From an uncultured Candidatus Micrarchaeota archaeon (GTDB lineage: Archaea; Micrarchaeota; Micrarchaeia; Burarchaeales; Fermentimicrarchaeaceae): a DNA stretch of 64,000 nucleotides. A program made the translations under genes and the position numbers. How positions within the stretch are numbered: the first letter of the stretch is position 1; every line of letters starts with the position of its first letter. The notes beneath the pieces are model-generated. The model had not been told where the DNA came from. It searched no databases and saw nothing but the letters and a program-made list of their open reading frames with translations. The stretch spans positions 148,722 through 212,721 of the forward strand of contig CAVXDX010000008.1 in the NCBI GenBank assembly GCA_963760615.1, written 5' to 3'. This document shows, in pieces, positions 18,241 to 25,738 of this stretch.

Positions 18241-18477
18241 TCATGGATTCGTTTGGTTAGTTTGGTTGATTGAGTTTCTTGTCTCATTCATTATTGTGCT
18301 TATCGCTTGTGTCGGTGACTGGCTCTGGTTGTTTACGGTCACATTGCCCTGGGTGCTTTCCCTGAGCTCCCTCATTGTCAGGAACAGGCTCACGAGCAAA
18401 AGCACAATCACTGAGATTATGAGCAGGTATTCTATGGTAGTTTGTGCTTTTATCAACTGACGTTGTCTTATACTCAT
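18241..18477 (-). CDS. Short class III signal-peptide protein (DUF361-like candidate major pilin)
   Basis: KAQ|TTIEYLLIISVIVLL; short N/T/Q-rich tail with sequons; first gene of the operon. Confidence 0.78.
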   Translation of the reverse strand: MSIRQRQLIKAQTTIEYLLIISVIVLLLVSLFLTMRELRESTQGNVTVNNQSQSPTQAISTIMNETRNSINQTNQTNP

Positions 18478-18595
18478 AATTCACCACCCTATTCATTATG
18501 GGGAGAGATATTTAAAATCTATGGCTTTGGTAACCTTGCAGATGTATTAGACAATTTCTGCAATCTGCAGTTTTTCACCGGAAAGTTACCCCTCA

Positions 18596-18610
18596 GAGAG
18601 GTTTATAAAG
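18596..18610 (+). promoter_or_regulatory. BRE/TATA-like promoter upstream of the reRNA-like locus
   Basis: GAGAGGTTTATAAAG resembles other promoter-like sites here (AAAGGTATTTATAAG near 12240, AAGGTATTTAAG near 20510). No ORF follows it. Confidence 0.5.
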
Positions 18611-18627
18611 CCATCTTTTGTAATCAC

Positions 18628-18829
18628 ATCACCGCCAACCCATAAGGCGCAGAAGGGAGTCGCAAATACGAACCACCTATGTATGCCTGTATTGCATAAA
18701 GCCGGCAGGTTAAGCATAGGGGCGGAATACCTCCGGGCAGGGGGGAATGCAAGCGTGTGGAGAATCCGATGGGTATTCTGGGAAGCACGAAGTCCCTGAA
18801 GTAAAAAAGCTGATGAGGGGGCATGTCAC
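18628..18829 (+). ncRNA. Stand-alone IS200/IS605 TnpB reRNA (omega-RNA)-like structured RNA / non-autonomous element
   Basis: Blocks GGGGCGGAA..GCGTGTGGAGA..GAAGCACGAAGTCCC..GGGGCATGTCAC resemble tnpB 3' ends. Translation QACGE..SGKHEVP..GHVT resembles TnpB tails. 5' part has stems CGCC/GGCG, CCTATG/CATAGG and TATGC/GCATA. No tnpB or tnpA ORF. Confidence 0.55.
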
Positions 18830-18838
18830 AATCCATAC

Positions 18839-19537
18839 TTATAGTTTGGAATACTTCTCCCTTATTTCCTTCATTCTGCCGCAGGAGAAAGTCCCCTCTG
18901 GGCATGTGCCCAGTTGCACGCAGGATGGACCTGCTTTCTCAAATATGACCGGAGCAACCTTCTTGCATTCCTTTGCCATAAGCTCAGCGAGCTCCCTTAT
19001 CTCCCACTGCGCCCTCTCGCAGCAGCGCAGGGAAAAGAAGTGGAGCAGCTCCCTGCAGTTCATTGTCACGACAATTGTCGCCTTGGTTGCGTTAGGAAGT
19101 ATGTAGCGTGCGTCCTCAACGGGCACGCCCAGCTGTATGAGCTCATCATAGCTTCTCCTTATGTCGGAGAGAGCGGACTGGAAAAGTTTTGAGGCTTTTT
19201 CATTGCCGTTTACTATAGGGGGGATTACGAATGCATCCTCACCGCTTACCCTCACATACCTCTGGCTCTGCTGTGTGTAAGAAGCCATTCTGTGCCTGAC
19301 AAGCTCGTGGGTGAGGGCCCTTGAAACCCCGGATACGCTGAATGTGAAGGAGGCGTGCTCTGTAACAGAAATGTGACCTGATTTTATTATCTCCCTGAGA
19401 AGCTTCATTGCTTTTTCCCTCTCCCCTGCGGACTTGGCGAGCAGCTCAGCAGGTGCAAGGCTGCTCCTCGAAGTTTTTGCAACTGCTGCACAGACCAAGT
19501 CCGGGTCGGGCGTATGGGCTATGAGTTTTACTTCCAT
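18839..19537 (-). CDS. thyX: Flavin-dependent thymidylate synthase
   Basis: GHISVTEH, SRALTHELVRHRMASYTQQSQRY, AQWEIR. Confidence 0.95.
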   Translation of the reverse strand: MEVKLIAHTPDPDLVCAAVAKTSRSSLAPAELLAKSAGEREKAMKLLREIIKSGHISVTEHASFTFSVSGVSRALTHELVRHRMASYTQQSQRYVRVSGEDAFVIPPIVNGNEKASKLFQSALSDIRRSYDELIQLGVPVEDARYILPNATKATIVVTMNCRELLHFFSLRCCERAQWEIRELAELMAKECKKVAPVIFEKAGPSCVQLGTCPEGTFSCGRMKEIREKYSKL

Positions 19538-19603
19538 GAAAAAACCTCCCAATAGTGTTTAAGGGAGAAAGTATAAAAACGTTATAAGAGGCAATTTAAT
19601 TAC

Positions 19604-19690
19604 GCGGGGGTGTCTGAGCCTGGTCAAAGGAGCAGGGCTTAGGACCCTGTGCGCTTAGGCGCTTCGTGGGTTCAAATCCCATCCCCCGCA
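19604..19690 (+). tRNA. tRNA-Leu(TAG)
   Basis: Anticodon arm CAGGG-CTTAGGA-CCCTG; long variable arm; T-loop TTCAAAT. Confidence 0.95.
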
Positions 19691-25518: not shown

Positions 25519-25574
25519 GATAGCCTTCTCTGCAAAGGGCTTTGCGCATAAATTCACTTTCACCGGAAAGTTAC

Positions 25575-25623
25575 CACAATATAGCGGGAAAGCCCACACC
25601 ATTTATGGGTGGGAGCATGTCAC
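25575..25623 (+). mobile_element. 49-bp IS200/IS605-like single-hairpin miniature element (PATE-like)
   Basis: TTAC|14 nt-AAAG-hairpin CCCACACCAT-TT-ATGGGTGGG-AGCATGTCAC|; the end GCATGTCAC is shared with 18821-18829. Confidence 0.55.
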
Positions 25624-25665: not shown

Positions 25666-25738
25666 GGGGGGATGTGCTAGTCTGGTATGCTTCGGGGTTT
25701 GGGACCCCGCGACCCGAGTTCAAATCTCGGTCCCCCCA
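25666..25738 (+). tRNA. tRNA-Pro(TGG)
   Basis: Acceptor GGGGGGA/TCCCCCC; anticodon arm CGGGG-TTTGGGA-CCCCG; T arm CCGAG-TTCAAAT-CTCGG. Confidence 0.93.

Follow-up and report, generated by a model that had tools for sequence, protein, structure and literature searches.

Stand-alone omega-RNAs, which are mobilised, lack an effector gene and act in trans, were reported by Altae-Tran et al. 2021, as summarised in PMC10691335. PATEs of Geobacillus stearothermophilus IS605-family elements often encode omega-RNAs (Meers et al. 2023, PMC10055086), and a retention or homing logic has been described for TnpB, in which the empty allele is cut (PMC10055086). In ISDra2, as resolved by cryo-electron microscopy, a 116-nucleotide (nt) scaffold forms stems 1-4 as well as a pseudoknot between nt -5 to -3 and the stem-1 loop; the RNA farther 5′ (-231 to -117) overlaps coding sequence, is disordered and is dispensable (PMC10097598). 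Here we describe a 314-bp element (18516-18829, + strand) located between a gene for a pilin-like protein and thyX in an uncultured Micrarchaeota archaeon of the genus Candidatus (Ca.) Fermentimicrarchaeum. The analysed stretch, hereafter the window, is 64,000 nt long (C8:148722-212721) and belongs to a genome assembly (G000) of 1.14 Mb in 16 contigs that is 91% complete. An initial annotation of the locus had proposed a free-standing guide-RNA gene for a TnpB encoded elsewhere, with a non-autonomous IS605 derivative as the alternative. Our results indicate that both descriptions are right and refer to the same object. We consider it probable, at roughly 70%, that the locus is a PATE-like, tnpB-less derivative of a resident TnpB-only (IS1341-type) IS200/IS605 family, inserted after TTTAA, and that its RNA is served in trans by a resident TnpB.

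Boundaries of the element and its link to resident tnpB genes

To define the ends of the element, we compared the thyX locus across all six species of the genus. Three species (G003, G004 and G005) carry an empty site, an allele that the initial annotation had suggested looking for in relatives: the pilin-like gene is followed by ...TTTAA and then directly by the thyX-side flank. In the studied genome and in Ca. F. limneticum Sv326 (G002, a complete genome), TTTAA is followed by the element, which ends in GTCAC, and then by the same flank, with no target duplication. T-T-(T)-A-A stands directly before the left-end start in full-length and short copies alike, and most full-length elements examined have a terminal left-end hairpin (GAGTGAGCGGGAAATCCCAC...GGTGGGATGAAAGCGA) ~85 nt upstream of TTCAC. 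By the empty-site comparison the element begins at 18516, not at 18590 as first annotated, and the full left ends together with the empty sites replace the earlier candidate for the target/transposon-adjacent motif (TAM), TTAC, with TTTAA. TTCAC, which precedes GGAAAG, was also considered as a TAM and rejected, because the terminal hairpin of the full left end lies farther upstream and the empty sites read TTTAA. In the studied copy the hairpin region is no longer recognisable, and no other copy of these 58 bp left of the promoter was found anywhere; the sibling copy at C8:7.6 kb has an intact hairpin.

The right end of the element (GCATGTCAC, last nt 18829) is common to four closely related tnpB elements of the same genome, and the promoter module of its left end is shared with the tnpB elements. 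The first ~38 nt of the stretch originally annotated (TTCAC-YGGAAAGTTACCCC-N-GGTTTATAAAG) also head tnpB genes of the host genome, the products of which begin M-x-AYKFRIYPSKKQE. Altogether the host genome has 18 copies of the module with a TATA box, which precede tnpB genes, the four stand-alone RNAs and some other genes. Those before non-tnpB genes (GGAAAGTTACCCC-N-TATA) include C8:18464 (minus strand, SMC-like open reading frame (ORF)), C5:21720, C4:140651, C14:2818 and C14:26085, and are either co-opted solo left-end promoters or a general promoter element of the genus.

To examine the relationship between the scaffolds, we built a covariance model (R1) from stand-alone copies only. R1 matched the 3′ ends of four tnpB genes of the host genome at E 1e-10 to 5e-9 (38-45 bits). 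The aligned part extends from stem 1 through GCAUGUCAC and comprises the 3′ 104 nt of the element (18726-18829); in the tnpB genes this part of the scaffold overlaps the codons for ...ATPGQGGSNAC...KQEA. The host genome has six uninterrupted matches to PF07282 (the TnpB/Cas12f TNB domain) and one with an internal stop, none of them in the window, and four of its tnpB genes have the matching scaffold and right end. One matching TnpB, analysed in detail, contains the OrfB_IS605, TNB and HTH_OrfB_IS605 domains and matches the ISDra2 TnpB structure 8bf8 with E 2e-43; its RuvC-like motifs GIDLG and DRDLNAARNI were aligned, and the E residue was read by eye. Five TnpB sequences keep the RuvC-like motifs as judged by eye, one of which was aligned to a solved TnpB. 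Thus, the expectation that ISDra2-like tnpB genes would be present elsewhere in the genome was borne out, and the shared promoter module and the R1 matches tie the element to them.

Four full copies of the RNA were found in the host genome by BLAST and covariance model, namely the studied one and those at C16:2306-2498, C8:7707-7908 and C3:83348-83555, and three of the five other species of the genus have further copies. Our collection comprises 24 distinct copies, including 13 metagenome loci found with a degenerate pattern; all are stand-alone, and all come from the genus or from sediment/groundwater metagenomes. In a pattern scan of public genomes, the matches to this RNA were confined to Ca. 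Fermentimicrarchaeum and related Micrarchaeota metagenome-assembled genomes. Directly upstream of every one of the 24 copies lies the promoter or other non-coding DNA, never a tnpB ORF. As had been anticipated for further scaffold copies, the 3′ flanks are unrelated among copies, and copy-to-copy conservation breaks off exactly after GTCAC.

Several copies deviate from this pattern in detail. Two (L023 at G001:C37 and L025 at G004:C9) are without the shared promoter module and have a TATA-like box 20-27 nt before the core; in L023 the core follows immediately on the left-end tip GTGAGTGGGAAGTC. Instead of GTCAC, the two copies end in GTCCC and GTCGC, with the pseudoknot strand UGUC intact. The most divergent copy (L083, Ga0116165_1011019:4227-4420, minus strand) has no recognisable promoter module and lies directly after another element's hairpin end (…GGGTGGGGGTGAAAGGCGG).

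Conserved structure of the RNA and its extra 5′ domain

The element has no protein-coding capacity: the lengths of insertions and deletions between copies are not divisible by three, and sequence changes compensate one another at the RNA level. Its TATA-like box (TTTATAAA, read from the sequence) and the motifs quoted in the initial annotation are present at the places given there; the box is followed by ~200 nt holding GGGGCGGAA, GCGTGTGGAGA and GAAGCACGAAGTCCC, and then by GGGGCATGTCAC, which ends at 18829. The position of the box predicts a transcription start near 18630, which is where conservation begins.

Folded as a single sequence, the copy was no better than its shuffles (z -0.18), and neither strand did better than chance in this way, so the structure could be tested only comparatively. 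For this we used two alignments, A1 with 12 copies and A2 with all 24. A hand-derived structure of ten helices with three pseudoknots gave 94.7% paired cells in A2, versus 41-49% when the partners were slid by 1-3 columns, and 91.7% in A1. Compensatory changes were observed in 26 of 47 pairs (A2), and none of 500 shuffles reached the observed covariation score. A2 was fitted to the nested helices, so that the nested-helix counts lean towards the model; the three pseudoknots serve as an independent check, because they are not part of the model used for the alignment. In pseudoknot 1 (PK1) GCAAYACG pairs with UAUUGC, and seven copies show a C-G to G-C swap. In PK2 CCCAU pairs with AUGGG, with the variants CCCG/CGGG and CCUG/CAGG. 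In the core pseudoknot (PK3) UGUC at -6 to -3 is paired to GGCA of the stem-1 loop in 24 of 24 copies, one of them (L083) with the doubly compensated form GGAC/GUUC. Behind this UGUC the scaffold ends with AC, where the predicted guide takes over. Two further helices, Px and Py, were misregistered by the aligner and fold in every copy with different sequences. All ten helices and the promoter are intact in the studied copy, the nearest to an exception being the base of stem 3, where one G faces another.

The originally proposed ~200-nt structured RNA is thus strongly supported across 24 distinct copies, and not by the fold of the lone sequence. Its individual pairings fared differently. The CCTATG/CATAGG stem is conserved as Px, and CCTG/CAGG do pair, as the nested helix Py and not as a pseudoknot. 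Two supposed local hairpins gave way to more distant partners: the CGCC/GGCG sequence belongs to the long-range closing helix, and the TATGC/GCATA sequence to PK1 (coordinates in Table 1).

One alternative would be that the RNA belongs to a different non-coding class, such as a ribozyme, a C/D-box RNA or a riboswitch, and merely adjoins insertion-sequence (IS) debris. The 5′ 96 nt have no counterpart in tnpB elements, and the stem-4 loop of some copies contains a CUGA...UGAUGA pair, both of which could be taken to point in this direction. However, no Rfam family matches 18630-18829 on this strand even at E 10, the 5′ domain is always accompanied by the omega-RNA core, to which a covarying pseudoknot connects it, and the stem-4 loop varies among copies. 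The K-turn or C/D-like reading of CUGA...UGAUGA was set aside on account of this variation, and we regard a different RNA class as very improbable indeed.

The 5′ ~96 nt (18630-18725) were skipped in the R1 alignment to tnpB-linked scaffolds, with 90-92 model positions deleted. Full-length R1 matches in the family genomes and 151 genomes of the phylum were confined to the genus and to stand-alone copies, and when the host genome was searched with the 5′ module (nhmmer), the four stand-alone copies were the only matches. A covarying helix closes the domain, inside which PK1 lies and from which PK2 extends to the stem-3 loop. No tnpB coding remnant was found in this half, in agreement with the earlier view that it is not decayed tnpB coding sequence. 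A parent tnpB bearing the domain was not found in the host genome (nhmmer), in the family and 151 phylum genomes (R1), in the genome and metagenome pattern scans or in phage and plasmid collections; one candidate, at G004:C25, turned out to be a 5′-truncated relic.

A cassette at C4:42417-42600 of the host genome (minus strand) has the promoter fused ~25 nt upstream of a tnpB-type scaffold with ...CATGA-A...CTAC codons; it contains neither tnpB nor the extra 5′ domain, and its 3′ terminus has diverged. It is a plain deletion derivative and reveals a route by which such cassettes arise. Since this derivative exists without the 5′ domain, the domain is a lineage-specific addition. It may give a transcript made outside a tnpB mRNA a defined, stable 5′ end, or it may help loading in trans. 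A more far-reaching idea is that the domain is an adaptation that makes a transposon guide an autonomous trans-acting RNA gene, through stability, a TnpB-independent definition of the 5′ end or recruitment of another factor, and that, once the transposition end had decayed, selection maintained the promoter-plus-RNA unit in a DPANN lineage free of TnpA. We hold this to be speculative and doubtful; if true, it would be an early stage, reached in nature, on the way from a guide embedded in an IS to a free-standing gene of the tracrRNA/crRNA type.

History of the thyX site and proposed mechanism

In a further species (G001; locus L060, C20) a tnpB element of a different family (tail ...NADFNGAMNILKRS...) occupies the identical TTTAA in the same orientation; the thyX TTTAA site is an insertion hot spot. 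The trees bear on how its occupants arose. In the thyX-locus tree G000 pairs with G001 and G002 with G003, so the two species carrying the cassette are non-sisters, and the core tree does not unite the same-site copies. In approximately unbiased (AU) tests, carried out post hoc on only 200 nt of paired RNA, the same-site copies were rejected as a clade (p 0.002), and a second site (site A) was found to hold two different subfamilies (p 0.0006). Orthology in situ of the G000 and G002 copies was rejected on the basis of the non-sister carriers and the former test. These trees fit one ancient insertion less well than they fit recurrent insertion into a small number of permissive intergenic TTTAA sites in a compact genome, or replacement through recombination.

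The origin and boundaries of the element, the conserved RNA structure and the presence of matching tnpB genes rest on the observations above; transcription, loading and cleavage belong to the mechanism that we propose in the following. The archaeal promoter kept from the left end would drive transcription from near 18630, and the ~200-nt scaffold would fold into a canonical omega-RNA core, with stems 1-4 and the pseudoknot of the stem-1 loop with nt -6 to -3, onto whose stem-3 loop the 96-nt 5′ domain would dock. Read-through past the right end would add the next ~16-20 nt (AAUCCAUACUUAUAGU...) as guide. One of the four closely related ISDra2-like TnpB proteins would load the RNA in trans, and the complex would cut TTTAA plus flank, that is, the empty allele, leading to retention of the element or to homing by recombination. 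Where the element is present, GTCAC instead of TTTAA stands before the flank. The flank directly after the element (AATCCATACTTATAGTTTGG) is antisense to the stop and last codons of thyX, the minus-strand ORF at 18839-19552 (Pfam Thy1, E 1e-71), as had been described for the predicted guide from 18830 onward.

Several observations weigh against this proposal. The first 16 nt of the guide match nothing but their own flank in the genome at up to two mismatches, as is also the case for the three sibling guides, and the search suggested earlier for guide matches next to a TAM yielded no TTTAA-flanked target in the host genome; a guide that has no match beyond its own flank leaves TTTAA plus that flank, i.e. 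the empty allele, as the one sensible target. The left-end hairpin of the studied copy has decayed, and the Y1 transposase TnpA (PF01797), which the initial annotation had advised searching for, was not found in ten family genomes (G000-G009), including the complete one of Ca. F. limneticum, in searches whose positive controls worked; excision, the event to which retention would respond, may thus have ceased at this locus. No RNA run was listed as containing the sequence. Compatibility with the resident TnpBs is assumed, as the RNA departs from the tnpB-linked scaffolds in stem 3 and in the 5′ domain. Rfam 15 has no match on the strand of the element, either at gathering score in the whole window or with E up to 10 in 18400-19000, and of the covariance-model check proposed at the outset only the match of R1 to tnpB 3′ ends came out positive. 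Rfam models cover few TnpB scaffold lineages, which makes this a weak negative.

Some of these observations would equally be explained if the locus, while of the same origin, were by now an inert relic, a mini-IS in decay, with an RNA that is either not produced or without use and a structure shaped by selection in the family's mobile past rather than at this locus. The decayed hairpin, the failure to find TnpA in the family and a guide without a target in its own genome are in line with this, and copies do decay, as exemplified by the truncated copy at G004:C25 and by stubs of ~65 nt. Moreover, since the same-site copies are not monophyletic and their carriers are non-sisters, we do not take a comparison between the G000 and G002 copies to prove purifying selection at this locus. 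On the other hand, the promoter and all ten helices of the studied copy are intact, and relative to the G002 copy the promoter is 85% and the core 79% identical, versus 56% for the adjacent left-end region (thyX, 77%). Furthermore, the two copies that are without the shared promoter module, one of which retains the left-end tip only, still have a TATA-like box at the right distance. An inert relic therefore seems to us unlikely, though well worth keeping in view.

The position next to thyX raises another alternative, namely a domesticated guide RNA that acts as an antisense or convergent-transcription regulator of thyX or guides a TnpB repressor or hot-spot guard, the 5′ domain providing the new function. 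In favour of this, two non-sister species have a cassette at this site, the transposition end has been lost whereas promoter and RNA persist, the guide and the 3′ end of thyX overlap, and tnpB-linked guides do not have the additional conserved domain. However, the other copies lie at unrelated sites with unrelated flanks, the guides of all four host-genome copies are without targets in trans, and the cassette is dispensable, since four of the six species are without it at thyX. The lack of a clade of same-site copies fits repeated hot-spot insertion, and no nuclease-dead partner was seen among the five of six TnpB ORFs whose RuvC-like motifs were inspected by eye. Domestication is hence improbable, and we favour the tnpB-less derivative served in trans by a resident TnpB.

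The tnpB elements and mini-elements are polymorphic between species despite the failure to find TnpA in G000-G009. A stub of the same IS family, 65 nt long, also lies in the window (25559-25623; C8:174280-174344), a short distance upstream of a tRNA (25666-25738). In this stub TTCACCGGAAAGTTACC is fused to a terminal hairpin and ...AGCATGTCAC; it is too short for a scaffold. On the side of the element away from thyX lie small pilin-like proteins with weak class III signal peptide matches. A tRNA match on the + strand at 19604-19690 spans 87 nt versus 71 model positions and may hold an intron or a long variable arm.

Table 1. Positions of the element's features and RNA helices in the window
Feature	Position	Strand	Basis or remark
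Target/transposon-adjacent motif TTTAA	18511..18515	+	Empty sites; overlaps TATA-like region of the pilin-like gene on the other strand
Degenerate left-end region	18516..18573	+	Absent from empty sites; unique in the genome
Promoter module TTCAC-CGGAAAGTTACCCC-N-GGTTTATAAAG	18574..18612	+	Common to tnpB-element left ends; TATA box 18602-18609
Extra 5′ RNA domain, ~96 nt	18630..18725	+	Covariation; only in stand-alone copies
Closing helix, CCGCC / GGCGG	18632-18636 / 18721-18725	+	Covariation
PK2, CCCAT with stem-3 loop ATGGG	18639-18643 / 18769-18773	+	Covariation
PK1, GCAAAUAC with TATTGC	18662-18669 / 18690-18695	+	Covariation
Px, CCTATG / CATAGG	18676-18681 / 18715-18720	+	Folds in every copy
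Py, GCCTG / CAGGT	18685-18689 / 18706-18710	+	Folds in every copy
Canonical TnpB omega-RNA scaffold	18726..18829	+	R1 alignment to tnpB 3′ ends; covariation; ISDra2 layout
Stem 1, CCTCC / GGGGG, loop GGGCA	18730-18734 / 18740-18744	+	
Core pseudoknot, loop GGCA with TGTC	18736-18739 / 18824-18827	+	Covariation
Stem 2, CGTG / CACG	18754-18757 / 18786-18789	+	
Stem 3	18760-18765 / 18775-18780	+	
Stem 4	18792-18797 / 18817-18822	+	
Predicted guide segment (flank read through from scaffold)	18830..18849	+	Conservation among copies stops after GTCAC; flank continues the empty-site sequence

Comparison with known guide-RNA systems

Among natural guide-RNA genes, stand-alone omega-RNAs are the simplest, and they could plausibly represent a stage between guides embedded in transposons and RNAs of the CRISPR type. 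The locus adds a covariation-supported case in an archaeon with a ~1.1-Mb genome, several TnpB genes and no detectable TnpA, in which a minimal TnpB scaffold has gained a second structured domain contacting stem 3, which in ISDra2 is flexible and can be dispensed with. If this domain improves stability or loading in trans, it could serve the engineering of compact TnpB editors; if it does not, the locus is simply a well-characterised mini-IS.

The resident TnpB and the omega/reRNA core resemble ISDra2 of Deinococcus radiodurans (PDB 8bf8, 8exa, 8h1j) not only in the protein but also in the order of stems 1-4, in the pseudoknot of the stem-1 loop with nt -6 to -3 and in a guide taken from the flank after the right end. 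Unlike in ISDra2, the TAM is TTTAA and not TTGAT, the RNAs have no sequence similarity, and the region 5′ of the core is non-coding, conserved and structured and pairs with the stem-3 loop. Like the terminal-only IS1341/IS605 stubs and MITE-like derivatives of archaea, the element and its sibling copies are internal-deletion derivatives of TnpB-only elements scattered over intergenic sites. In those stubs, however, only the ends are fused and no scaffold is possible, whereas the element described here keeps its promoter and a full scaffold. With the guide RNAs associated with TldR, the TnpB-derived RNA-guided repressors, it shares a guide derived from a TnpB scaffold that can persist at an immobile locus; in contrast to these, no nuclease-dead TnpB was seen among the five inspected ORFs, there is no conserved promoter target, and the guide differs with each insertion site.

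The closest described relatives are the stand-alone omega-RNAs and PATEs, which are likewise protein-free, have IS200/IS605-type ends and a guide scaffold at the right end, coexist with effector-encoding copies in the genome and are expected to be served in trans. Unlike them, the element resides in an archaeal (DPANN) host and carries the left end's own archaeal promoter as well as an additional 5′ domain of 96 nt with two pseudoknots, which tnpB-linked guides do not have, and its left-end hairpin has decayed in a family in whose searched genomes TnpA was not found. The kind of element is therefore already known, and what is particular here is an archaeal promoter-driven cassette with a covarying, doubly pseudoknotted domain that persists in a TnpA-free lineage.

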